Part shown: piece after piece, positions 4,319-48,204 of the stretch
Layout of the letters: each line of letters opens with the position of its first letter
Position numbering within the stretch: position 1 is the first letter of the stretch
Origin: a virus
DNA length: 64,000 nt
Reading direction: 5' to 3' (one strand)
Virus record (IMG/VR): IMGVR_UViG_3300009135_000001
Span: 11,255-75,254 of that record
Program-made: the position numbers and the translations under genes
The notes under the pieces: model-generated
Told to the model about the DNA's origin: nothing
Database searches by the model: none
The model's input: only the letters and a program-made list of their open reading frames with translations

Positions 4319-5908
4319 ATGGCCGAGAACGGGTTCAAAAAGTTCTTAGCCGGGAAAGTCCGCGACGCGGACACTTTCGAAGATGAATCAGGAGAAGGCT
4401 TACGTCTGCTCGGCGTAGACGCGCCTGAGGCAGGCACCCCTGGAGGCGAAGCAGCCACATCTTTTGTAAAGAGCGCCTTGGACAAGCGCCAGCTTGAACT
4501 CAAAGATACTGGACGAACTGGCTACTACGGCAGAAAGCTCGTAGAGGGTAAGTTCTCTGACGCAGAAACCCCGCTCGGCGCTCACATGATAAGCCTCGGC
4601 CACGCCCGCCCATCGCCTGGCAGTGAGTTCGACGAACTAAACAACCTCGCAGAAAGCTCATCCACCACCTCCCGTGTGCTCGGTCTACAGGATCGTGGCG
4701 TACAGAATGAGATCGATCTTGACTTGAGTGGGAACAAAGCTTCTGATTTCAGGAGTCGCAGAGGAACGTTCGGCAAAGCAGTCGGCCGTGGCGTTGACAA
4801 CGTACAGCAGCTCGGTTACTCGGCAGCCAATGTCGGAGCGATGGCTCTCGGCGACCTGTTCGGGACTGAGATATTAGACTCTTGGGGCGAAGAAGGTTTG
4901 AAGCGGAATATGATAGAAGCCGCAATGAACCCCGCTGAAGTACAGACATGGGACGATGTTGACAGTTTGTCAACTGGATTCACCTATGTGCTGGAGGCTC
5001 TCGGTGAGCAACTTCCTAACATAGCCACTTTGGTAGGCACTGGCGGCGTCGGTGCTGCCGCTAAGTTTGGCGTATCGAAGGCAGTACAGGCTGGTATCCA
5101 GAAGAAGCTTTCACAGTTGGCCCTCAAGCAGGGTAACAAAATGCAAGTCGCCAAGATGACGAAAGGCAGCTCCGGTTTCACCCCCGGTATAGCCGCTGGT
5201 TCATTCGGTTTTGGCACCGGTGAGATCGGAAATGAACTGAGGGACGCGGGTATTGATTCCCCCGCCACAGCTTTGTTGGGAGCAATTCCGTTTGCTGCTC
5301 TCGATACATTGGGCTTCCAGTCAACAATCGGAAGGTTATTCAAAGGCATAAATAAGGACATCGCCACTCAGTCCGTAAAGGACATCGCACGAAGTACATT
5401 CAGGGCAGCTGGCCTAGGTGCCGCTGCTGAGTCATCAACGGAGATGTTACAGGAGGTGATCACATTATCTGCCCGCGCATTCCACGATCCGACTTTCGAG
5501 ATATTCAGCGATGAGAACTTGGCAAGAATCAAAGAAGCTGGTATAAAAGCAGGTATCGTAGGTGGCGTACTGGGCGGCGGCTCACAAGCTGCCGTATCAA
5601 CTGTAGGCAAGCTCACACAACCGGCAGCACCATCGACGGAGACCGAGGGGGCGACGGCCCCACCGGGAGCTACACCACCTCCCGCAGCACCCGCTGCGGG
5701 AGTCACGACTTTTGCTCAACGGGATTCGAACTTCGAATACATACCAGATGAAGCTACTGTACCAGCTCAAAGCGTCTTCGAGGATGCCCCGGCCGATGCT
5801 GTCCTCTCAATTAAGGGTATGCTCAAAGAAGAGATTGAGCCAGCGCTTGCCGCCAACGAAAATCAAATTAACGCCTACGAGGCGTTAAAGGCGTGCCTAG
5901 CCTCATGA
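4319..5908 (+). CDS. Ejection protein with N-terminal SNase (thermonuclease-like) domain
   Basis: VRDADT...RLLGVDAPE...GGEAATSF...YYGR matches the SNase signature; Gly/Ala-rich helical remainder. Confidence 0.75.
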   Translation: MAENGFKKFLAGKVRDADTFEDESGEGLRLLGVDAPEAGTPGGEAATSFVKSALDKRQLELKDTGRTGYYGRKLVEGKFSDAETPLGAHMISLGHARPSPGSEFDELNNLAESSSTTSRVLGLQDRGVQNEIDLDLSGNKASDFRSRRGTFGKAVGRGVDNVQQLGYSAANVGAMALGDLFGTEILDSWGEEGLKRNMIEAAMNPAEVQTWDDVDSLSTGFTYVLEALGEQLPNIATLVGTGGVGAAAKFGVSKAVQAGIQKKLSQLALKQGNKMQVAKMTKGSSGFTPGIAAGSFGFGTGEIGNELRDAGIDSPATALLGAIPFAALDTLGFQSTIGRLFKGINKDIATQSVKDIARSTFRAAGLGAAAESSTEMLQEVITLSARAFHDPTFEIFSDENLARIKEAGIKAGIVGGVLGGGSQAAVSTVGKLTQPAAPSTETEGATAPPGATPPPAAPAAGVTTFAQRDSNFEYIPDEATVPAQSVFEDAPADAVLSIKGMLKEEIEPALAANENQINAYEALKACLAS

Positions 5909-6120
5909 AACTATCCCGCAGAAAACTAGCTGAGCTCCAGAACAAAGGCGTCATCAAGCAGGAACTGGACGGCTCTATCACTCAGGTTAAGGACATCCCA
6001 GGAACAGCCCCAGTCTCGCTATCTGATAATAAAAAGCGTTCGTGGAAGGTCCACGATTTCGAGCGTGACTGGGACGGTTTTATAACCGCCGTGGCCATCA
6101 CTGAGACCACCGAATTATGA
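5905..6120 (+). CDS. Hypothetical protein (first gene of the inserted cassette)
   Basis: ATGA overlap with the upstream stop; 71 aa. Confidence 0.65.
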   Translation: MKLSRRKLAELQNKGVIKQELDGSITQVKDIPGTAPVSLSDNKKRSWKVHDFERDWDGFITAVAITETTEL

Positions 6121-6365
6121 GCATTGCTGTGACAAACGACGAAATTGCCGACCGCCTCGCGAAACACGACGAGCGCATGACTAGCGTGGCCGCGACTGTG
6201 GAGAGAATTGAGAAAGAGCTGGAGCCGTTAACGGAACTGTACGAGGACATCGCAGCAGTTGGCCGTTTCGGGAGAGGTTTAGGTAACATAATCAAGTGGT
6301 TTGGCGGTGTGGCTATAGCAGTCGCGGCGATTTGGGCCACCATCAAAGGGTATCGACCATGGTAA
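6117..6365 (+). CDS. Small coiled-coil plus C-terminal TM protein (holin-like)
   Basis: Heptad N-terminus followed by hydrophobic IIKWFGGVAIAVAAIWATI. Confidence 0.6.
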   Translation: MSIAVTNDEIADRLAKHDERMTSVAATVERIEKELEPLTELYEDIAAVGRFGRGLGNIIKWFGGVAIAVAAIWATIKGYRPW

Positions 6366-6640
6366 AGTGGGCTAGAGAACATCCGTACAAAGCAGCAGTG
6401 CTAGGTTTGGCGCTCCTTATCATACTCACCGGAGCTCTCGAAGAAGTCAGAGCAGCTGAAAACCCAACAGTCCTAAACAAAACACCGTATGGTTTCACGT
6501 TTGGAATGGCCGACGGCAGCAGACGTTTCTGCGCTCTCGATTCGGAGACCACAGTTAAATGTGTAACTGACCAACAAACGATACTCAACTGTAAATACGA
6601 GGACGAACCGGTTTACTTCTCCGGTTGTAAGGAAGAATGA
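6359..6640 (+). CDS. Hypothetical exported protein
   Basis: Start MVKWAREH at 6359, signal-peptide-like AAVLGLALLIILTGA, four Cys. Confidence 0.6.
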   Translation: MVKWAREHPYKAAVLGLALLIILTGALEEVRAAENPTVLNKTPYGFTFGMADGSRRFCALDSETTVKCVTDQQTILNCKYEDEPVYFSGCKEE

Positions 6641-6921
6641 AGTGGCTCATCGTAGCGTTGGCATTTTTCGCAACCACTGCGACGGCTGAGCTGAATATAA
6701 AATATTTAGAACACGCGTTATTTATGACGGTGACTAAAGGCGAGCGATCTGGGAAAATCGTTTGTCTCAATACGAAGCAGCCCAAAGGAGGGCTACCCAC
6801 AGGTTGGAAAAAGCTGACCTGTAATAGTTTAGAATCGCCGGTGCAGTGGATAGCTTGCTTCGCGAATGTTGAAAAGAAATCTTTTTTGTGCGGCAAATTT
6901 AAAGTCGCTTTGAAAAACTAG
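6637..6921 (+). CDS. Hypothetical exported protein
   Basis: Signal peptide MKWLIVALAFFATTATA; Cys-containing; ATGA coupling. Confidence 0.65.
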   Translation: MKWLIVALAFFATTATAELNIKYLEHALFMTVTKGERSGKIVCLNTKQPKGGLPTGWKKLTCNSLESPVQWIACFANVEKKSFLCGKFKVALKN

Positions 6922-6933
6922 GAGTAATACTGA

Positions 6934-9342
6934 ATGGCACTTATCACTGATCCCGATGACCTCTCGCAAGGTACCGAATACGTTGTCGCGAATATGGTTA
7001 TCACGACTCCCGGCACCGGCGCGGATTCCCAGATTACGGGTACGAGCATGGGCTCCCTTGTCGCGACCGATTTCTTCGAAATCCGCGACCACTCTGATCC
7101 CCTAGCCAACGGCTTGTGGCAGGTTGTCACGGTTAACACCGACACCTCTGATTACGAGTGTGATAAAATCTCCAACGGCGCGGTACCGGCCACTGCTGGT
7201 TCTGAATCAGCTTCTTGGTTTGGTGGCGACGCTGCCATCACTGACGAGAAGTCTGTTTACTTCGACACGTTGGTTGAAGAAATCTGGCTCCTGGAGCAAG
7301 GCAACCTGTCTGTAGACGGTGTGACCATGCTGGCCCTGCACTCTTTCATTAAGAAGCGCTGGAAAGACGACCAACTCCTGATTGACTCTGGTGCCTTCCC
7401 GATGGTTGGTATCTCCTTCGCGGCTGGTCAGTGGGAATTCGGTGAAGACCCCTCAGGTAACAACTCTGACTGGTCTCTTAAAGTCGACGCTGGTTCAAGC
7501 ACTGACTCCCCTCGCCTGATCCGAAACGCTGGTTGGAACCAGAAGAACAACGCTGGTGTTACCACCGGTAAGTTCTTCAACGTAACCACTCTTGGCGTGT
7601 TCGAGGACACCGCTGACCAAGCGCTGTATTACTTCGGTAACGACTACACTGTCGACAACACCGTAAACTTCGCCTTCACTGGCCCAGTTAACGAACCTGT
7701 TCAGTACTTCGATCTGATCGGCGACCTGTCTGGCGACAGCCCTGACTTCCCGTCAACCACTACTATCACTCGTTCAACCGGCAGCTTCATCACTGACGGC
7801 TTCGTGGTAGGTGGCCAGATCACTGTTGCAGGTTCAACCACCAACGACGGCACCTACACACTGAGTGTTGTGTCTGCTCTGAGCATGACCATCTCTACTA
7901 CGTGGACGCTTGAAGCTTTCGCCGGTACCATCGCGGTCGACAACGCTAACGCTGTAAGCGTTCAGCTTCGTATTCGTGACGGTGATGCGAAAGGTAAAAC
8001 CTTCCAGACTTCTGGTTTGGCAGAAGCGGGTGAAACCGCAGTTGCCTCCAAGGTTATCAAATTCCCGCTTGCGAACGCAGCTGACCAAAAGATCGACGTC
8101 ACTGACGCGAACGTTGTTACCACCCCGTGGAATGAAGTGTGGATTCGTTACCTCGACCAAGCGTACAACCGCACAGTCGATAGCGCACGTGCTTTCGGTA
8201 TCGTTGTCGACGCTGGTACTTACTCGCAGGCCAATGGTGCCGCAGCTACCACTTCTCGGTGGGACAGTGCTAACCTCAACCTCGGCGCAGGCGAAGCACT
8301 TGCCGACTACGCAGGTGGTACTCTGATCGTGCATGAAGGTGTGAACGAAGGAAGCTACACTATCTCCGGTACTCCGGTGGATAATGCAAGCACCCTTGAG
8401 GTTACACTTGTAGGCACCCCACTGACCGTTTCTGGTTCAGATGAGTCGTACACAGTACAACGTGCTACGCCTCTTGGTGTATCCGCTCAGAACGTTTTCG
8501 AACGTGTGCAGTACGAACTGCGTCAAGCAACCGACATCAACAGCTCTGCTGACGGCTCTGTTATCGGTCTGATGACTGGTGAACTGGCAGCTTACGTTGG
8601 TGATAACGTCACCTTCGGCGGCGCTCTGTCAACCAACCCGAACGGTGGTGGTGATGGTGTTATCGTCGAGGGCTTCGATGCCAACGATACGAACAACATG
8701 TTCTTCATCCATAACGCAGGTGGCGCGGCAATCAACTTCCCGTTCGTTGCTGCTGGCAACCTGAACTTCAACGCGAACCTGACTGGCGACACCGATCCGG
8801 AATACTGGCTGTACTTCCAGTACACCGAGCGCACTACCAACTCTGACATCGACACCGTCGGCCCAGCTGGCAGCTCGTACGACCTGGAAGGCACACTCGG
8901 TACGTACTTGGTCAACGACTACATTCGTATCAGTGGCTTCGCTCAGGCTGAGAACAACGGTTTGTTCCGTGTAACGGTCGTGAACGTTTCAGGGTCTGAC
9001 TACACGGTCATCCGTGTCGATGGCGAAGCCGTCGGTACTGCTGAGACCAACCAGACTGTCAGCGTGGATGAGAACCCGTACAACTCACCGGATGCGATCA
9101 TCGTTAACGACAACGGTGGTTCACCGATCGTCGGCGCTGCGTCGTCTGCATCTATTGCTTTTGACTTCGATTACGACAATAATGTCCAAGGCGGCAGAAC
9201 AACCGGAACGGCAGTCTGCGTGCTTAAGGCCAGCGGCTTAGAGCTTGGGCAATACGTCGAGATTCTGAACCAGCAAATCACTCGCGACACTGGTTTGTCA
9301 TTCACAGCTACCTCGCCGTTGGAACGTAACTTTACTCCATAA
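6934..9342 (+). CDS. Large acidic beta-rich putative structural protein
   Basis: 802 aa, Asp/Thr/Gly-rich; strong SD (AGGAG); codon bias (GCT/GGT/AAC/ATC) resembles the major capsid gene. Confidence 0.7.
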   Translation: MALITDPDDLSQGTEYVVANMVITTPGTGADSQITGTSMGSLVATDFFEIRDHSDPLANGLWQVVTVNTDTSDYECDKISNGAVPATAGSESASWFGGDAAITDEKSVYFDTLVEEIWLLEQGNLSVDGVTMLALHSFIKKRWKDDQLLIDSGAFPMVGISFAAGQWEFGEDPSGNNSDWSLKVDAGSSTDSPRLIRNAGWNQKNNAGVTTGKFFNVTTLGVFEDTADQALYYFGNDYTVDNTVNFAFTGPVNEPVQYFDLIGDLSGDSPDFPSTTTITRSTGSFITDGFVVGGQITVAGSTTNDGTYTLSVVSALSMTISTTWTLEAFAGTIAVDNANAVSVQLRIRDGDAKGKTFQTSGLAEAGETAVASKVIKFPLANAADQKIDVTDANVVTTPWNEVWIRYLDQAYNRTVDSARAFGIVVDAGTYSQANGAAATTSRWDSANLNLGAGEALADYAGGTLIVHEGVNEGSYTISGTPVDNASTLEVTLVGTPLTVSGSDESYTVQRATPLGVSAQNVFERVQYELRQATDINSSADGSVIGLMTGELAAYVGDNVTFGGALSTNPNGGGDGVIVEGFDANDTNNMFFIHNAGGAAINFPFVAAGNLNFNANLTGDTDPEYWLYFQYTERTTNSDIDTVGPAGSSYDLEGTLGTYLVNDYIRISGFAQAENNGLFRVTVVNVSGSDYTVIRVDGEAVGTAETNQTVSVDENPYNSPDAIIVNDNGGSPIVGAASSASIAFDFDYDNNVQGGRTTGTAVCVLKASGLELGQYVEILNQQITRDTGLSFTATSPLERNFTP

Positions 9343-9351
9343 TGAGGTACT

Positions 9352-9585
9352 ATGATCGACATCATTGTAAATACTCCGGAGGGTCACACCCTCCGGAATC
9401 CTATCTGGAAGGTCGACTCAGAACGTGACTTTGCTTTTGTTGACCTCCAGAGAGAGGTATGTCTAAAACTGGGGGTTGACCCCGCCCAGTATAAAATCCG
9501 CTTCGAGGGCGAGGACATGCATAACGGTGCACTTTGCCTGAACTACCTAGACCAAGGCGACTCCGTCGATGTGGTGGAACGCTAA
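9352..9585 (+). CDS. Ubiquitin/SUMO-like beta-grasp protein lacking C-terminal Gly-Gly
   Basis: IIVNTPEGHT, LGVDPAQYKIRFEGEDMHNG and NYLDQGDSVDVV align by eye with ubiquitin [30 protein letters not shown] and DYNIQKESTLHLV; GAGG SD. Confidence 0.6.
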   Translation: MIDIIVNTPEGHTLRNPIWKVDSERDFAFVDLQREVCLKLGVDPAQYKIRFEGEDMHNGALCLNYLDQGDSVDVVER

Positions 9586-9588
9586 CTC

Positions 9589-11205
9589 GTGGCAGCTGCA
9601 TCCTACACCACTGATTTAACTCTCATCGATGATGCTCAAGCAGTCGGTAACTTCGTTGCTTCTGGCGGCGGTGCGTCTGCACTGAATGATGAGACTGATT
9701 ACTTCATCAACGACACCCAATGCGTAAGTAAGAACGGTTTTACGGCGACACAAAAAGGTATGCTGGCGGACGATGTGTCCGCGCCTAGCATTACAGCAGG
9801 TGATGCTGTCTTCATGTGGGCTCGTCAGGCTAACAGGAACATCCTCGACACAGTCGCCAACTCTGGTGGAGCTGTCATCATGGGAACGTCGAACAGTGTG
9901 TTCGCTGGTTTCAATGTTGATGGTAACAACGTCGATGGTAACGCTCTGTTAAGTTGGGTTAACTACGCAGTAGATCCAACCCAAAGCAGTTCATACACTT
10001 CAGGATCTCCCGGCGCAGCCAGCACTTGGGATCACTTCGGTTTTGAATGGGCCATACTTGGTTCTGGCTCCCTGAAAGGAGCGCCTAATGCTATAGGCGT
10101 TATCCGTTATGGGAGAGAAATACGCTGCCAAGATGGTGACTTGGGTAACGGTTACGCTACATTCGACGGAGCGGCTGTCTTCGATGCGGGTATCACACGG
10201 CGTTGGGGCATATTGACTCCTATCTCAGGCGGTTATAACTTCCATGGTAACTTCGTCATGGGGTTGGTTGGTACAGCAGTAGATTTCCGAGACTCAGATA
10301 GAAACATCTTGGTGCTTGAAGACCCGTTCGTACCTGTCGGCTTCAACGAATTCGAGATCATCAACGCGAGTTCTAACGTAGAGTGGACCGGTATTTCAAT
10401 TGAAGCACTGGGTACGACCTCACCGTTCACCCTGACCCTGAATGTCGGCACCTTTACTGGCGACTTGTGTACGTTCAAAGGAGCTGGTACTACAGTATTC
10501 ACCAGCACCGGAGCATGCACCAACTCCACATGGCAGGACAGCGACCAGATAACTCTCGGTGAAGCTGACATCAGCGGTTCCAGTATCCTGACTCCTACAG
10601 TAGCTATTGACGAAGGAGCTGTCTTCGACGACCGTACTACCACCGCTACCACAGCGCTGACTGAATACACCAACTGCATCTTCTCTAAGGGCGCTACCGC
10701 ACACCACGCCATTGAGTTCGGCACCGGCGTTGACGACGACCTCACTCTGGAAGGTGTGGAGTTCACTGGTTTCTCCTCTACCGCCGAGGCAAACGACGCA
10801 ACACTACGTTTCAACGCTACGGGAGGCTCGCTGACGCTCACTTTGATTAACTGCACTGTGGACGGAGCAGCGGCCACTACCAGCAACGTGGGTGTTGACG
10901 ACGCGGCGGGCATCACCGTCACACTCAGTACAGACATTGTAGGAACTTTTACCGGAATGAGGGACAACAGCGAAGTCCGCGTTTACACAGCAGGTACTAG
11001 TACTGAGCTTGCAGGTGTCGAAAACGCGACCGCTGGTAGCACTGACGACCGTAGTTTCGCCGCCACCATCGCGGGCGGCACAAGCGTGGACTACACGATT
11101 GTGAACGAGACGTACGAGATCGTGAGAGTAGAAGGTTTCACCTGGCCCACCACGGCGCAGGATATCCCGATCTCTCAGCGGTTTGACCGAAATTACATAC
11201 CGTAA
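9589..11205 (+). CDS. Thr/Gly/Asp-rich beta-rich putative structural protein
   Basis: 538 aa, GTG start; composition typical of surface or fibre proteins. Confidence 0.7.
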   Translation: MAAASYTTDLTLIDDAQAVGNFVASGGGASALNDETDYFINDTQCVSKNGFTATQKGMLADDVSAPSITAGDAVFMWARQANRNILDTVANSGGAVIMGTSNSVFAGFNVDGNNVDGNALLSWVNYAVDPTQSSSYTSGSPGAASTWDHFGFEWAILGSGSLKGAPNAIGVIRYGREIRCQDGDLGNGYATFDGAAVFDAGITRRWGILTPISGGYNFHGNFVMGLVGTAVDFRDSDRNILVLEDPFVPVGFNEFEIINASSNVEWTGISIEALGTTSPFTLTLNVGTFTGDLCTFKGAGTTVFTSTGACTNSTWQDSDQITLGEADISGSSILTPTVAIDEGAVFDDRTTTATTALTEYTNCIFSKGATAHHAIEFGTGVDDDLTLEGVEFTGFSSTAEANDATLRFNATGGSLTLTLINCTVDGAAATTSNVGVDDAAGITVTLSTDIVGTFTGMRDNSEVRVYTAGTSTELAGVENATAGSTDDRSFAATIAGGTSVDYTIVNETYEIVRVEGFTWPTTAQDIPISQRFDRNYIP

Positions 11206-12437
11206 TGGCCGTTTCATTCGACGGGCCAACCCTGACAATCACCCTCGAATCCGGTGTGACGTCGGTCGAGTGGACTACTGTTTATTCTGACTGGAAGCGG
11301 TGGGTGCAAGACGGTGGTGGACATGCTTACCCCCCAGCATTCAGGCCAGATGGTGGCTCACCTCTATCCGCTGTAATCGACCAAGGTAGATACTACTTCC
11401 TTCAAAACAATCTCGGCTGGCGAATTAAGCCACCCGAAGAAGACATAACTATCCAAGCATTAGGTAACTTGGCCCTTGAAGATGCTGATCTGCCTTCGAT
11501 TCTACCAACGACTGGCGCTTTCACCGCTGCGATACTCGGCCTCCAGCCTATAACGCAGGGTGTCATACCAAGCATGAGGACCAACCTCGAATTCAATACG
11601 TTCCAAGGCGCGGTTTGTATCGACATGGCGAACAGAACTGGTAACGCGATAGCGGGAACCGGTTACTCTGGCGACGACCGTATTGGTACGCGCCGAGCAC
11701 CTTGCGACAACCCGGAAGATGCTCTGACTATAGCCAACCGCGAGGGCTTGCACCAATTTATCATCGTATCGGATTTCGATGGGGCGGGTTACAACACAGA
11801 TTTCAGCGACGGCTTTGCATTCATAGGCGACTCACCATTTATTGACTTCGATATGACCAGTTCCCTTTCAATGAACAATTGCGACATTCACAACCTTAAA
11901 GTCGGCGGGGAATCTGATGGAGTCAACTTGTTAGAATCCTGTACTATCAACGTCGTTAGCGGTTTCAACGGAACCATGCGCAGTTGTGAGTTGGATGGGA
12001 CAATTGCCGTCAACGGTAGCTGCCGTATCCTTGACTGCTTCTCAGCGCGTACTGGTTTGGGTTACAGCACTATCACTGGGATCGCCAGTTTCAACGTACA
12101 GATTCGTAATCTGCGCGGCTCCATCGGGCTCGAAGACATGGTCGGTGGCAACCACTCTATCGGTATCGGCGGTGAGGGTCGGTTAATAATCGAGGCGAGT
12201 TGTACAGGTGGAAATATCTTCGGGCGCGGCCAACCGTACGACGTGGACAACTTGGGTACCGCAACGTATGTCGACCAGACCGAGAGTAAGAAGAATACCC
12301 GTATGTACCAACGCATGGGTCTGGAAGTCGGACTCGATGTCATCAACAACGTCGATGGCAGCTACACCTTCGATGACGTAGTGGTAGGCGCATCGATCGA
12401 TGGTAGCGGAAACGTGACTCATAACAGGTCTGCCTAA
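11205..12437 (+). CDS. Putative structural protein with beta-helix-like middle region
   Basis: 410 aa; repeated small beta motifs (MNNCDIHNL, LESCTINV, MRSCELDG); TAATG coupling. Confidence 0.65.
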   Translation: MAVSFDGPTLTITLESGVTSVEWTTVYSDWKRWVQDGGGHAYPPAFRPDGGSPLSAVIDQGRYYFLQNNLGWRIKPPEEDITIQALGNLALEDADLPSILPTTGAFTAAILGLQPITQGVIPSMRTNLEFNTFQGAVCIDMANRTGNAIAGTGYSGDDRIGTRRAPCDNPEDALTIANREGLHQFIIVSDFDGAGYNTDFSDGFAFIGDSPFIDFDMTSSLSMNNCDIHNLKVGGESDGVNLLESCTINVVSGFNGTMRSCELDGTIAVNGSCRILDCFSARTGLGYSTITGIASFNVQIRNLRGSIGLEDMVGGNHSIGIGGEGRLIIEASCTGGNIFGRGQPYDVDNLGTATYVDQTESKKNTRMYQRMGLEVGLDVINNVDGSYTFDDVVVGASIDGSGNVTHNRSA

Positions 12438-12658
12438 TGTCCCGCGCAATAGGCATGGCTACACTCGGCGTCATCTGCCCTGAGTCCCGAGCACTTGGTA
12501 TGGCGTCACTTGGTGTTATCTGCGATGCCACCGTGGTTGTAGCGAAAGCTGCTGTAGCCCTCGATGGCGGTGGGTATGATCAGTACAGAGATGAACATGA
12601 CGTTATGGACATCATTTCAATTATAATTGCTTCAGGGGTGCTAGATGGCAAGCCTTAA
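12437..12658 (+). CDS. Small protein with tandem SRA(I/L)GMA(T/S)LGVIC repeat
   Basis: Two near-identical 13-aa units at the N-terminus; acidic then hydrophobic C-terminus. Confidence 0.6.
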   Translation: MSRAIGMATLGVICPESRALGMASLGVICDATVVVAKAAVALDGGGYDQYRDEHDVMDIISIIIASGVLDGKP

Positions 12659-15600
12659 ATCCTGCCTGGCCAAAGTTAAGAAAGCTGGTTTCGACACCAG
12701 CACGCTACCCCTGTCTGAGCTAGAAATATCCAGCAACCCCACTGCGGTCATAGACTCAGAGCTTACACAACTTCGTCAGGAACACGAAGAACTTTTCACT
12801 ACGCGTGAACGCCTGATGGAACAGGTGCGTCAATTCTCCCCGGAGATGAACGAAGCTATTCAGGAGCATATCGATGAAGAAATCCAAATTAATAAACCCT
12901 CCAGGCCGATTGGGCCCAAACAACCCACCCCCGGAGAGCAGGCGGGGCTTGCTGGTAGGAATGCTGTTGGCCTCCCTAAACAGCCACAGAAACAGACCCC
13001 CCGTCCTCTTGCAAACCTTGAGCAAGCAGTCGAGACAAAGAAAGCCACGGTTGGAGAAGAAGAGGCGGCTAAAGTCAGCAAAACTATGGCGGTCTTACGT
13101 CGAGCTCAGCGGGATGGCAAGGAGTACCACGAGCTAAGTACTGGGTACGCAGTACGAAAGGCTGTGGCTGCTGGCAAAATGAAAGAGATACGGGCGATGT
13201 TTCCTGAGGAGACATCTAATACTGCGGCCATGAAGAAGTTCCAACAGGTCGCCAAAAATCAAACCTCTACGGAGAAGAAAGATGATTCACCGGTATTTAA
13301 CAAGCGACAAGAGAAACAACTTGGTGCATTCAACAAAGACACCATCGCACAGAGAAGCGATGAAGTGGCACCTCGTGGAGAAAAGGAAACTAGCGATGAT
13401 TCGCAACTTGAAGGCGTCACCGAGCAAGAACAACAGCCAGTCGAAGTTCGCATCGAGCCGTACGTCAATAAGAAAGGCAAATCTACGGAACTTAGCGGCG
13501 TGGTTGGCATCGCCCGGCGGATCAAGAACCTTATCCCCGGCGCAACAATGTTCAGAGAAAGCGCAGGTGGGGGGCTAAGCACCTATGTCATCAAAGTGGA
13601 TAATGCAGAGCAGGGCGCGTATGATGGAACACCGCAACAACTTGCGGCCCAGCTTACCAAGACCTTCACTGACGGCAAACGTACGGACAAGAATAGACTC
13701 ATCCTATATGACAAAAGCGGAGAGGCAATTCCTGTTAACTCCCGGGAAATCACCAAACTTGGCGCTATCGTCGACCAAACCACACAAGACGCTTCCATGG
13801 CTCCGGTCGAGAAGTCAGGCAAACAATTCAATGCTGGCCTAGCCTTCCTGATGGTTGAGGGCAACCTGTCCCTCCAGAAAGTCAGGACAAAAGCGAAAGC
13901 AAAGAAGCCGCCCTCACCGTTGGACAACAAGTCTATCAACGAGGCGTGGAACATGCTGCCGAAATTCCTTCGCAGCGTTATCAAACAGCTGACGTGGATG
14001 ACCCCCGCTGACAAAGTGATAATCATCGAGAAGCACGGTGTTGAACCACTGGGCCTGGCGCAGCAAGCGAACAGCTGGATATTCATCAACAAAGAAAAGC
14101 TGGCTAAGAGCAAGCATGGCGACCTCAATGCGCAGGTTGTCCTGCTGCATGAGTCTGGACATATTGCTGACGCTGAGTTGAACTACGAGCCACGTAACGA
14201 TTGGCTCACCAACGACATGCTGGTGAAGTATTACCAGTCCGGTACGAACCCGAAAGATCCGATGCATCAGGTCTTCAAGCGTATCTTCAACCCCGATGGG
14301 AACTATACGCAGGAAGAGTGGCGCAAGGAAGTTGTGGCCCAGCTCTACATGGCGTATCATTTGTACCCTGACCAATTAAAAGCGTACAGTCCCGAGGGCT
14401 ATGCGTTAGCGGAGAGAATCAATGACGAGCTACAGCTCAAAGCAGACTTCCTCGCCAGAGAGCAAGAGGCTCGCGAGGCAAGCGGTGCGGCAGGAAGAGG
14501 CCGAAGTGATGGGCAAAGCCAAGGCGTTGCGGAATCGCAAGAAAAAGCAGAAGGAAGCGAAGGAAATCTTGACCTTAGCACCGTAATCGATGGCCGTGGG
14601 ACAACCGTTGCACAAGCTGCTGAATACATATCTACCCGTAAGAAAAAACCGGCAGATTTCGACCCGCGTGATATTGAGGAAGTTGCGGGTGAGGTCGAAG
14701 GTGAAGCAGACACCCGAGCCTTTGAAACTGACGATGCGCAAGCGGCTCGCAGCTCTGGACGCTCTAAGACCGCACCTGAGCTTATCGGGGAGACACTTCG
14801 TCCGAAGACGGTTAATCCGTCCAATGAGGAAGCAAAGCGTGTCTTCGATGCGTCAACCGAGCGTAAGGCATTCGGGAAGATACCGTCAGCGTTCATCGCT
14901 GTTACCAATAAACTATTCGGCCAACTGGGTATCAAGACTAAAGTTCTTGTGGTTGATAAGGCCGGGGCGCAGGAACTGCTCAAGGAAACGGGGCTTCCGT
15001 CTCAATGGGCGGACAATCTCAAGCAGGCTATAAACGACGAGCCTGTCGGGCGGCTCATGCTATCCGACAGCAGCAACGCGAACGAACGCTTTGCTATCAT
15101 CTACATCGACACCAAACAAACCCCCGCTAAAACACAGCGTGCGCTGCTCCACGAGCTTGGTCACATCGTGCAACTTGCGAAGTTAGATCAAGCCTCGCCT
15201 GAGATTCAAAAGGCTCTCAGGGACGCACACGAGGGCTCACAGACCCAAAAGGAATTCGAGGAGTGGTTCGCGGATCAACTTCTCCAGTGGGTTGACAGCA
15301 AAAAAGCTCCCAAAGGCGTGCTCGAACAGTTCTTCAAGGAGTTGGCACGAGTCTTGCGTCGGGTCTACAACAAATTCAGCGGGGCGCATCCTACTTATGA
15401 GCAATTTATGGATAGCTTGGTTGCTGCAAACCAGCTTAAGAGAGGAATGCAGAAGCCAGCATCGGGGAAACATCGTCGTGATTGGATTGAAGACATGCGT
15501 AACAGCGTGGATTCGCCGTTCCTTGCTCCGCAAGAGCGCTCTTTCTACAATTTCAACGGTGATCCGTCCCCTACCAGGGCTGGAGTATCCAGTAAAGCTG

Positions 15601-17555
15601 AGAAAGTTCTCGACTGGGGTAAAGAAAAGGCCTCAGGAACCAAAGAAGCGCTAGGAGAAATCTTCTCACCCGCTCATCAGATCATCACACAGACTTCTGA
15701 CGCCTATTTGCGTGCAAATGGACTCGCTTGGCTCGCAGATCACTTCCACAAACGCCCGGATGTAAGCACTTCTCGTACTGGCCCCACCATCGAGCAGGAA
15801 ATTCGTGGAGAATTCGGCCAGTTTGAGGCTGATATCGACAAGGTTCTTGGAAAGATGCCAAAAGGCACACGTATTTTCAACCACGTCGACCGTAAAGACC
15901 CGAAATATGCTCAAGCTGTTCAGGATTTGCTCAGCCAGAGCGACAATCCTAACGCTTTGGCGAAGCAGGTGCGCGACTACTTCGCGATGATGGAGAATTA
16001 TTTACGCAAAAACGGTGTTCAGCTGAAGAAAAGACGCAAATACTTCCCGATAATGCTCGACAAGCACCAGTGGATGGCGAATCACGACAAAGTTGTCGAA
16101 ATAGCCATGACCAAACTCGGCAAAACCCGAGCAGAAGCAGAGAATATGTACCTGGCGGTCGCCAACGACCCGTCGACGTTCGCCGACATGTCGACAGAAT
16201 ACGATCCACGGACGACTGCAACCTTTGGCCACGCCAAAAGCAGGGAGTTCGGGGTGAAGGAACACTTGGCGTTCGCCGAATTCATCGATACTGACCTCGC
16301 GTCTGTGGTCAAGAACTACACCCACAGCGCTGTCAAGCATGTCGTTGTCAACAGACAGTTCGGTGCTCTTGGCACGAAAGCCGGTCAAGTCGATCCACTG
16401 ATTAACCTAAAAACGCAAATGACGAAGGCTCTGATCGCTGGTGAGATAACGCAGGAGGTCTATGACCGCACCTGGAACACTGTTATTCCCGGTATGTTCG
16501 GGCAGCTGGGCGCTAATATGAACCCAACCCTTCGTAAAATGCAGTCAGGTCTGATATTCTTCCAGAATGTCAGACTCCTCGGAACCGCCGTACTCTCTTC
16601 ACTCGTCGATCCCGTACACGTTCTGTACAGAAGTGGAACTCTCCGGGGCCAGTGGACCAATCTTCGAAAGGCAATGGGGGAACTTAACGATAAGGAGGCG
16701 CAGCTCTTCTACCGGACGCTTGGTATCATTCGGGACGATCTCACAGAGGCAATTGTTAATGACCCTACGCATACACAGTTTTACGCGCCCAAGATTAGAA
16801 GCCTTAACGAAACGTTTTTCCGACTGAACGGGATGCAAGCGCTGACTAACCTCGGCCGCATGTTCTCTTTCAGTGCTGGTAGGCAGTTCATCATGGAAGC
16901 TGCCAAAAATAATGACACGAAGCGCCTTGCAGAAATGGGACTTACCCGACAAGAAGTACTCGACTGGGATAGCCGTGGGCAACCGTTCGCCCTCGACAAT
17001 CCGGTAGACGCTAACGTGCTATACGCGCTGCACCAGTTTGTAGATGAGTCAATCCTCCGCCCGAGCGCAGCAATGCGCCCTGCGTGGATGTCCGATCAGC
17101 GATGGTTGCTCATTGCAAACCTCAAGTCCTTCATCTTCACCTACCACGAGACGATCCTACGTCGTATCTGGAGCCAAGTACGAGCTGGTGAGATCAAAGA
17201 CCCTGCGGTACTCCTGCCGTTCGTAGCCTTCGCAGCCGTCGCACTTGGTGTGTCGATGTTCGGTTACGAGGCACGTAGACAGATCATGAACGCTGGTGAT
17301 ATCCCCCCATACGCCCGAGCCGATGCCATGGACTACATATGGGAGGGCTTACAACGTACCGGCGCACTTGGTACTATGCAGTTCCTGGTTGACGCGATGG
17401 AGGCTGAGAGCAGAGGCAAGATGGCGTTGTTCTCAGTACTAGGTCCGACGGCTTCGCAGTTCGAGATGCTAATGACTAAGGATCTGAGCTACTCCATTCC
17501 ACGTTCCCTGCCTATATTCGCCCAGAGCGCTGCTCTACGTGAGTGGGTGCGATAA
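12645..17555 (+). CDS. Giant internal virion/ejection protein (polyvalent type) with two HExxH motifs
   Basis: 1636 aa; LLHESGH and LLHELGH; helical C-terminal half typical of the largest ejection protein. Confidence 0.75.
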   Translation: MASLKSCLAKVKKAGFDTSTLPLSELEISSNPTAVIDSELTQLRQEHEELFTTRERLMEQVRQFSPEMNEAIQEHIDEEIQINKPSRPIGPKQPTPGEQAGLAGRNAVGLPKQPQKQTPRPLANLEQAVETKKATVGEEEAAKVSKTMAVLRRAQRDGKEYHELSTGYAVRKAVAAGKMKEIRAMFPEETSNTAAMKKFQQVAKNQTSTEKKDDSPVFNKRQEKQLGAFNKDTIAQRSDEVAPRGEKETSDDSQLEGVTEQEQQPVEVRIEPYVNKKGKSTELSGVVGIARRIKNLIPGATMFRESAGGGLSTYVIKVDNAEQGAYDGTPQQLAAQLTKTFTDGKRTDKNRLILYDKSGEAIPVNSREITKLGAIVDQTTQDASMAPVEKSGKQFNAGLAFLMVEGNLSLQKVRTKAKAKKPPSPLDNKSINEAWNMLPKFLRSVIKQLTWMTPADKVIIIEKHGVEPLGLAQQANSWIFINKEKLAKSKHGDLNAQVVLLHESGHIADAELNYEPRNDWLTNDMLVKYYQSGTNPKDPMHQVFKRIFNPDGNYTQEEWRKEVVAQLYMAYHLYPDQLKAYSPEGYALAERINDELQLKADFLAREQEAREASGAAGRGRSDGQSQGVAESQEKAEGSEGNLDLSTVIDGRGTTVAQAAEYISTRKKKPADFDPRDIEEVAGEVEGEADTRAFETDDAQAARSSGRSKTAPELIGETLRPKTVNPSNEEAKRVFDASTERKAFGKIPSAFIAVTNKLFGQLGIKTKVLVVDKAGAQELLKETGLPSQWADNLKQAINDEPVGRLMLSDSSNANERFAIIYIDTKQTPAKTQRALLHELGHIVQLAKLDQASPEIQKALRDAHEGSQTQKEFEEWFADQLLQWVDSKKAPKGVLEQFFKELARVLRRVYNKFSGAHPTYEQFMDSLVAANQLKRGMQKPASGKHRRDWIEDMRNSVDSPFLAPQERSFYNFNGDPSPTRAGVSSKAEKVLDWGKEKASGTKEALGEIFSPAHQIITQTSDAYLRANGLAWLADHFHKRPDVSTSRTGPTIEQEIRGEFGQFEADIDKVLGKMPKGTRIFNHVDRKDPKYAQAVQDLLSQSDNPNALAKQVRDYFAMMENYLRKNGVQLKKRRKYFPIMLDKHQWMANHDKVVEIAMTKLGKTRAEAENMYLAVANDPSTFADMSTEYDPRTTATFGHAKSREFGVKEHLAFAEFIDTDLASVVKNYTHSAVKHVVVNRQFGALGTKAGQVDPLINLKTQMTKALIAGEITQEVYDRTWNTVIPGMFGQLGANMNPTLRKMQSGLIFFQNVRLLGTAVLSSLVDPVHVLYRSGTLRGQWTNLRKAMGELNDKEAQLFYRTLGIIRDDLTEAIVNDPTHTQFYAPKIRSLNETFFRLNGMQALTNLGRMFSFSAGRQFIMEAAKNNDTKRLAEMGLTRQEVLDWDSRGQPFALDNPVDANVLYALHQFVDESILRPSAAMRPAWMSDQRWLLIANLKSFIFTYHETILRRIWSQVRAGEIKDPAVLLPFVAFAAVALGVSMFGYEARRQIMNAGDIPPYARADAMDYIWEGLQRTGALGTMQFLVDAMEAESRGKMALFSVLGPTASQFEMLMTKDLSYSIPRSLPIFAQSAALREWVR

Positions 17556-38870: not shown

Positions 38871-38945
38871 TGGCTCCAGAGCTTGGGATCGAACCAAGGA
38901 CAGCCGACTTAACAGGCCGGGGCTCTACCTCTGAGCTACTCTGGA
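38871..38945 (-). tRNA. tRNA-Asn(GTT)
   Basis: Full cloverleaf TCCAGAG...CT-GTT-AA...TTCGATC...CTCTGGA-G-CCA. Confidence 0.92.
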
Positions 38946-39507: not shown

Positions 39508-39580
39508 TGGCGAAGCGTGAAGGGTTCGAACCTCCTCGTTTCGGTTTTGGAAACCTAACCGTCCCAAGACTGTACGCTCC
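39508..39580 (-). tRNA. tRNA-Trp(CCA) with shortened D-arm
   Basis: Acceptor GGAGCGT/ACGCTTC, loop TT-CCA-AA, T-arm and CCA present; D-arm only GTC-TTGG-GAC. Confidence 0.7.
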
Positions 39581-47745: not shown

Positions 47746-48150
47746 GTGAAATTGAAAGACCTCGCCCATGAGGCTCGAATGATTCGAATAGAAGAGACCA
47801 GGGCTAATAAAAGTCACAACTACCAGCTCCAAAACGAATTACATGCACACAGGGTCGGACCTTTGCGTTCCCACACCCGTGAGACCTTGCTCTCCTACAT
47901 GTACTTGCGTGGTTACCCCTACGATGCCGTGGAGGTCACTGGTAGTAAGGAGATATCACCCACAGGAAAGAAAAACATCCGCCGCATGTGCAAAAAGTAC
48001 GGCGGAGTAGAAATGACGCTCGATGAATGGATTTCGGGTAATCGATTAAGGCGGGGTAGCTCAGGAGCACAGAGCGCCATTAACTTGGAGGTCGTAAGTT
48101 CAACTCTTACCCCCGCCACCAAATTTGCCTCGTTAGCTCAGTCTGGTTAG
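47746..48150 (+). CDS. Conserved phage protein whose frame runs into the tRNA cluster
   Basis: LKDLAHEARMIR..HR..LRG..KYG pattern; TAG stop lies in the D-loop of the CUA tRNA. Confidence 0.6.
   Translation: MKLKDLAHEARMIRIEETRANKSHNYQLQNELHAHRVGPLRSHTRETLLSYMYLRGYPYDAVEVTGSKEISPTGKKNIRRMCKKYGGVEMTLDEWISGNRLRRGSSGAQSAINLEVVSSTLTPATKFASLAQSG
48050..48121 (+). ncRNA. tRNA-like RNA with 2-nt D-loop and degenerate anticodon arm
   Basis: Perfect acceptor GGCGGGG/CCCCGCC, T-arm GTAAG-TTCAACT-CTTAC, ACCA end; D-arm GCTC-AG-GAGC. Confidence 0.65.
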
Positions 48151-48204
48151 AGCGCCGCGCACTAAACGCGGATGTCGGAGGTTCGAATCCTTCACGAGGC
48201 ACCA
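48127..48204 (+). tRNA. tRNA with CUA (amber) anticodon and non-canonical A33
   Basis: Complete cloverleaf: GCCTCGT/ACGAGGC; GCTC/GAGC; CCGCG-CACTAAA-CGCGG; GGAGG-TTCGAAT-CCTTC; ACCA. Confidence 0.8.

Follow-up and report, generated by a model that had tools for sequence, protein, structure and literature searches.

Several described systems place a ubiquitin-related fold either among phage genes or outside the usual conjugation chemistry. TAPI of phages lambda and T1 is a ubiquitin-related beta-grasp protein encoded among virion assembly genes (PMC1779556); it is related to ThiS and MoaD, carries a conserved glycine and a C-terminal domain, and lies in siphoviruses beside TAPJ and the JAB-NlpC protein TAPK. 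Hub1/UBL5 and YukD/EsaB are stand-alone proteins that lack a di-glycine and are not conjugated: the former, which is eukaryotic and has spliceosome partners, uses a non-canonical face to bind a large assembly non-covalently (PMC8431670), and the latter has its context in type VII secretion (for YukD, PMC1779556). BilA and BubA are beta-grasp proteins of the phage-bacterium setting with a reactive C-terminal glycine, and their operons also encode E1, E2 and, as a rule, a DUB; Bil conjugates its ubiquitin-like protein (Ubl) to a phage structural protein, and the Bil E1 binds the Ubl non-covalently even without a covalent link (10.1101/2023.09.04.556158).

For the virion genes considered here, the closest described system is cyanophage Syn5, whose horn stands on the vertex opposite the tail and is added after the tail (PMC4238041), and whose gp55 is the capsid knob (PMC4102127). 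GenBank annotates Syn5 gp53 and gp54 as structural proteins. The horn, usually described as unusual, is reportedly (to go by a paper's title) made of two proteins, which we take to be gp53 and gp54. In the window (the whole stretch of 64,000 nucleotides that was analysed), homologues of gp53, gp54 and gp55 occur in the Syn5 order and flank a small gene for a Ubl. Syn5 itself has no gene between gp53 and gp54, has a T7-like backbone as opposed to the KPP25-like one found here, and has proteins without the extra inserted domains of the present homologues, for which a horn is presumed from the genes. The features are as follows:

5893 to 12658, plus strand: the whole cassette, between the genes for 529-aa and 1636-aa internal virion (ejection) proteins.
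6934 to 9342, plus strand: 802-aa Syn5 gp53 homologue (tblastn E 1e-11; blastp E 5e-22; profile E 2e-129 in a small local set); predicted partner of the Ubl through residues 133-173.
9343 to 9346, plus strand: Shine-Dalgarno-like GAGG, abutting the stop of the upstream gene; the same junction is found in five members of the Ubl family.
9352 to 9585, plus strand: 77-aa protein of the ubiquitin/SUMO fold, ending at ubiquitin position 72, with no tail and no Gly-Gly (from fold, alignment, dN/dS and a six-member family).
9589 to 11205, plus strand: 538-aa Syn5 gp54 homologue, matching in its C-terminal half (blastp E 8e-12; profile E 3e-27 in the same small set); putatively the more variable horn subunit.
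11205 to 12437, plus strand: 410-aa protein, homologous to Syn5 gp55 over its first 121 residues (blastp E 7e-14; profile E 2e-39, again in the small set) and extended at the C-terminus.

The virion cassette of the original prediction can now be named as one of gp53, gp54 and gp55 homologues, and the Ubl, judged from gene content, probably sits inside a horn/knob module and not a tail-tip cluster. The 538-aa protein shows 36-87% identity among relatives. The 802-aa protein (AF2 pLDDT 87) has no full-length structural match; compared with Syn5 gp53, it has some four beta domains inserted, and it gives weak Foldseek matches to segments of endosialidase and Uba6. Binding of the Ubl by E1-FCCH-like barrels in this protein was considered and rejected, since the Uba6 match is weak (E 0.013), there is no Pfam match, and the complex model described below docks the Ubl elsewhere. 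Such gp53/54/55-like genes are widespread as a mobile cassette, with 172 proteins of the gp53 type at E<=1e-20; they accompany several unrelated capsid types and also occur in the 197-kb Rctr197k and the Maribacter phage Panino. In the window, the cassette may split one ejection gene (4319-5908 and 12645-17555): phrog_6958 matches both ejection proteins in consecutive parts of its profile (64-345 and 593-1001), the first protein ends in KACLAS, and the second starts with MASLKSCLAK. The N-terminus of the 529-aa protein (4319-4620) holds a staphylococcal-nuclease-like domain (Pfam E 0.014; phrog_452 E 6e-9).

The phage sequence repeats its start at position 68,874 and is rated complete (68.9 kb). 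It carries terminase, portal, capsid and internal virion proteins and an M15 endolysin, and its capsid protein is 55% identical to that of Pseudomonas phage KPP25. On its gene content the phage is a KPP25-like podovirus of a bacterium; an archaeal host is disfavoured by the M15 endolysin and the KPP25-like core. The sample of one relative is labelled marine. The window also encodes a tRNA with a CUA anticodon (48127-48204, plus strand; called Pyl by ARAGORN), possibly an amber suppressor, adjoined by an odd tRNA at 48050-48121, together with a tRNA-Asn (about 38871-38945) and a tRNA-Trp (about 39508-39580); some phage genes end in TAG, and the long reading frames read normally with code 11. 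Outside the window, upstream, a 333-aa reading frame (L048:9829-10830) that follows Mtd_N tail-fibre genes looks amidoligase-like by eye and has no Pfam match.

The predicted 77-aa reading frame with its own Shine-Dalgarno sequence holds up: it runs from an ATG to a TAA and ends in VER, the GAGG lies 5 nt upstream, and the motifs originally quoted for it are found in its translation. Five relatives, at 54-92% identity, bring the family to six members; four of them, 71-92% identical, are each 77 aa long, and the sixth member (P0128; 74 aa, 54% identical) came to light among the genes surrounding one relative of the upstream gene. The GC and GC3 of the gene resemble those of its neighbours, and dN/dS lies between 0.075 and 0.20 over ten pairs. 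The gene is real: relatives, selection and composition together speak against chance, and a dN/dS of 0.08-0.20 excludes a dead reading frame. No family match was obtained in Pfam, PHROG, NCBIfam or PADLOC, and no members were found in prokaryote genomes or GenBank phages. A profile search of 1.84 billion representatives returned only the protein's own cluster and two long repeat-like matches; because that search missed P0128, more distant members may exist. Longer or fused forms were searched for and none found, which is weak evidence. A scan for promoters and terminators gave a result no better than shuffles.

The proposal that the sequence pattern tracks the strands and helix of ubiquitin was confirmed in predicted structures by three routes, all of which point to a ubiquitin/SUMO-type beta-grasp. 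ESM Atlas models (pTM 0.69/0.77) reach TM 0.74-0.83 to ubiquitin-family clusters. The AF2 model is mediocre (pLDDT 65, with the last strand poorly placed); Foldseek, a check suggested at the outset, matches it to SUMO2 and ubiquitin with probability 1.00 and E 4e-4, and VIA matches it to SUMO, ISG15 and ubiquitin with Z 6-7, where a Z under 8 is on its own only middling. The best 50 rows of Foldseek and VIA are eukaryotic Ubls; BilA/BubA, YukD and TAPI are not among the matches listed, which does not imply their exclusion. The nearest predicted structures (TM 0.80-0.83) are archaeal ubiquitin-family clusters, from Bathyarchaeota, Nitrososphaerota, Thermoplasmatota and Promethearchaeota, which have no significant sequence link to the phage protein, whose host is most likely a bacterium.

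What the fold retains, the C-terminus and the canonical face have lost. In an alignment with the parkin Ubl, residue 77 of the phage protein corresponds to position 72, so that the end of strand 5 is also the end of the protein, and the whole tail of positions 73-76 (LRGG), not only the di-glycine, is absent. The terminus reads V-x-R at position 72 in all six members, with no glycine at or after the end, in agreement with the original argument that a protein ending in VER cannot be conjugated by the usual chemistry. The L8/I44/H68/V70 hydrophobic patch of conjugatable modifiers is likewise not kept in the alignment: the I44 equivalent is R, Q or H, that of H68 is D, E or N, and P0128 has lost the L8 loop. 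The reported lack of E1, E2 and JAB genes in the window extends to the complete 68.9-kb genome, in which searches for JAB (PF14464), ThiF/E1 (PF00899) and UQ_con/E2 (PF00179) gave no match, with positive controls for the JAB and ThiF models. The following gene is in frame with the Ubl gene in the window, which could favour a modifier conjugated after processing or read-through; however, that frame differs among members, and read-through to a downstream Gly-Gly, or fusion to the gp54-like protein, was rejected for that reason. With no glycine at or past the end and no match to conjugation enzymes in the genome, such a modifier deserves hardly any credence, and the same is true of a non-functional reading frame, given the dN/dS.

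Compared with the described systems, the phage Ubl shares with TAPI a ubiquitin-related beta-grasp amid virion assembly genes, but it has no PF06805 match, no conserved glycine and no TAPI-C domain; the complete genome offers no JAB-type TAPK neighbour, and the genes are podoviral and not a siphovirus tail cluster. No PF08817 match links it to YukD/EsaB, and its neighbours are virion genes and not those of type VII secretion. To Hub1/UBL5 there is a feature-level match (at 0.90); both proteins are stand-alone and free of di-glycine, and the phage protein is proposed to act in the manner of Hub1/UBL5 and YukD, by non-covalent binding. Hub1/UBL5 ends in a di-tyrosine, however, unlike the VER of the phage protein, which has no spliceosome context and would have a different partner. 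The phage Ubl is a member of neither Hub1/UBL5, YukD nor TAPI. No paper on a Ubl in a horn cassette was found in the literature searched, which lay mostly outside subscription journals.

The comparison with BilA and BubA bears upon a rival explanation, raised with the original prediction, in which a non-activatable Ubl would serve late in infection as an anti-defence decoy, tying up the E1, E2 or DUB enzymes of host Bil, Bub or CBASS-type systems. Bil attacks virion assembly, its E1 binds a Ubl non-covalently (10.1101/2023.09.04.556158), the phage protein is not conjugatable, and its late position, patchy distribution and small size would fit an accessory counter-defence gene. Against this, the phage protein has no sequence match to Multi_ubiq (PF14452), to PADLOC or to any Pfam Ubl model, and the closest folds among the matches listed are archaeal and eukaryotic ubiquitin and SUMO. 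It also lacks the very tail that enters an E1 or DUB site, has altered equivalents of I44 and H68 and (in P0128) no L8 loop, and is under strong purifying selection. Exclusive co-occurrence with structural genes had been named beforehand as grounds for abandoning the decoy, and the linkage to a structural gene is strict in 6/6 members. A decoy is accordingly regarded as improbable.

The distribution of the gene combines a fixed slot with optional presence. Each of the six members has a gp53-like gene on one side and a gp54-like gene on the other. In the phage that carries P0128, the capsid protein has no BLAST match to that of the window, which argues that the Ubl travels with the cassette and not with the phage backbone. 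In L001, where the gp53-like protein is 82%, the Ubl 71% and the gp54-like protein 40% identical to those of the window, the Ubl has stayed with the gp53-like gene when the gp54-like gene was swapped. Among 46 records with cassette genes (many of them fragments), only one further genome has the Ubl, one of the 12 near-complete ones. The Ubl is absent from Syn5, Rctr197k and Panino, and from the close relatives L037, L081, L083 and L076-L079; L081 shares the capsid type of the Ubl-bearing L080 (77%) yet lacks the gene. The complete genome G028, whose flanking genes are 71% and 87% identical to those of the window, has a 9-nt gap in place of the Ubl, which it encodes nowhere else. The Ubl is therefore optional, and dispensable for the cassette.

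These empty sites bear directly upon the suggestion that the protein is a beta-grasp assembly chaperone for the flanking large proteins. A partner role is favoured by the fixed slot between the two horn genes and by the passing complex model described below; as an obligate chaperone for gp53/gp54-type horns, however, the Ubl is largely refuted by G028 and Syn5, which do without it, and this stronger version is now very improbable.

A different reading is that the Ubl is cargo, having entered a permissive slot of a late operon once, and that it is carried along with the 3' end of the gp53-like gene while acting on an unrelated host or phage protein through its beta2 strand (LRNPIW) or its helix. 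The slot is indeed empty or occupied by unrelated small genes in more than 20 other loci. The Ubl carriers group on the gp53 tree in a single nested clade (support 100/98), which P0031 joins at 0.96 in a quick tree, consistent with a single gain; pairwise identities hint at recombination. On the other side, the Ubl has never been seen outside the slot, even after its move to another phage backbone. Occupants of the slot elsewhere include L015:7073-7507, L079:6281-6694, L023:7442-7888, L079:5967-6281, L083:4918-5334, L028:7692-8081 and L043:4832-5011; recurrent among them are a family of 137-148 aa, SPOUT-like to the eye, whose L015 and L079 members are related at E 1e-4, and proteins rich in Cys, for which L079 and L083 match at E 1e-3.

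Complex modelling with a neighbouring protein had been proposed as a check on the original prediction, and the 802-aa protein was chosen as the partner because the two genes co-segregate. The pair passed with a score of 0.61, against 0.00 for the best of three controls (none of ubiquitin fold). The mark is reached by 58 of 80 solved complexes and by 2 of 110 mismatched pairs, counts that hold only roughly here, where the alignments were our own; according to the description of the tool, 7 of 44 blind neighbour pairs passed. At least 92% of contacts agree between runs, and the partner pLDDT is at least 85. In the model, residues 23-27 and 60-68 of the Ubl (the beta2-alpha1 loop and a further loop, on the face equivalent to the ubiquitin D58 patch) rest on residues 133-173 of the partner, in its core domain (helix 132-145 and strand 157-163). 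In the alignment, L61 and L63 replace the polar T55 and S57 of ubiquitin. The contacts of lowest predicted error involve L61, L63, N64 and D26, none of which varies among the six members; one of these, P0128, came to light after the modelling. This is not the usual I44/tail face, and we know of no like complex, so that recall of a solved complex seems less likely. The model supports, rather than shows, binding of the Ubl to the gp53-like protein, and the zero scores of the controls and the use of invariant residues weigh against cargo.

Other aspects of the model point the other way. With P0128 in the alignment, half of the interface (residues 23-25, 60, 65, 67 and 68) is variable, and the model gives no explanation for the invariance of the LRNPIW strand (14-19), which is not part of the interface. 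On the partner side, mean conservation at the interface is 0.91, against 0.70 for the whole protein, over 120 homologues, and is the same in phages without the Ubl; no gp53 positions specific to Ubl carriers were found, and hence no signal of co-evolution. The conservation of the patch regardless of the Ubl argues that the patch is older than the Ubl and probably has an assembly role of its own, and the model may have docked the Ubl on an exposed, conserved surface used by another subunit. The invariant strand and the lack of gp53-side adaptation would both be expected of cargo, which, with the evidence on both sides, is rated unlikely, though a serious competitor. K141/R142 of the gp53-like protein, which touches D67 in the model, was also considered as a mark of the Ubl and failed a prospective test: the slot is empty in three phages of the KR type, and L080, which carries the Ubl, is of the EE type. 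Among the gp53-like proteins P0008-P0068, K141/R142 goes with a C-terminus of (F/Y)TP, and E141/E142 with YSNP, in several lineages; this pairing suggests an intramolecular or inter-subunit contact.

Taken with the distribution, the model favours, at a probability of about one half, a Ubl in an accessory role, capping the horn protein non-covalently or modulating its assembly. A presumably late-expressed, non-conjugating Ubl would bind the core domain of the gp53-like horn protein encoded just upstream, and the surface that it would cover is probably an assembly surface, because its high conservation extends to phages that lack the Ubl. The Ubl might then act as an optional cap that keeps this surface shielded up to the point where the horn is assembled or docks onto the capsid; the horn joins last in Syn5, which would fit a shielding cap that times or aids horn assembly. 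Alternatively, within the same accessory role, the Ubl may stay on as a minor horn subunit. A fuller evolutionary account, in which a mobile horn module took up a eukaryote- or archaeon-type ubiquitin that then shed both tail and canonical patch, gained a new hydrophobic face and became an optional cap or subunit controlling horn assembly on the capsid, is offered tentatively, at clearly less than even odds.

With just six clusters, all uncultured, the family is tiny and its reach limited, and the occurrence of Syn5-type horn genes as a widespread mobile cassette on unrelated capsids may outweigh the Ubl in importance. If the binding holds, phage virion assembly would have recruited the ubiquitin fold a second time, independently of TAPI, here from the ubiquitin/SUMO branch and for a non-covalent role; a specific conserved surface of the Syn5 horn protein, whose structure is unsolved, would also be singled out as a site of assembly. 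The case would further warn against taking every tailless phage Ubl for an anti-Bil decoy.
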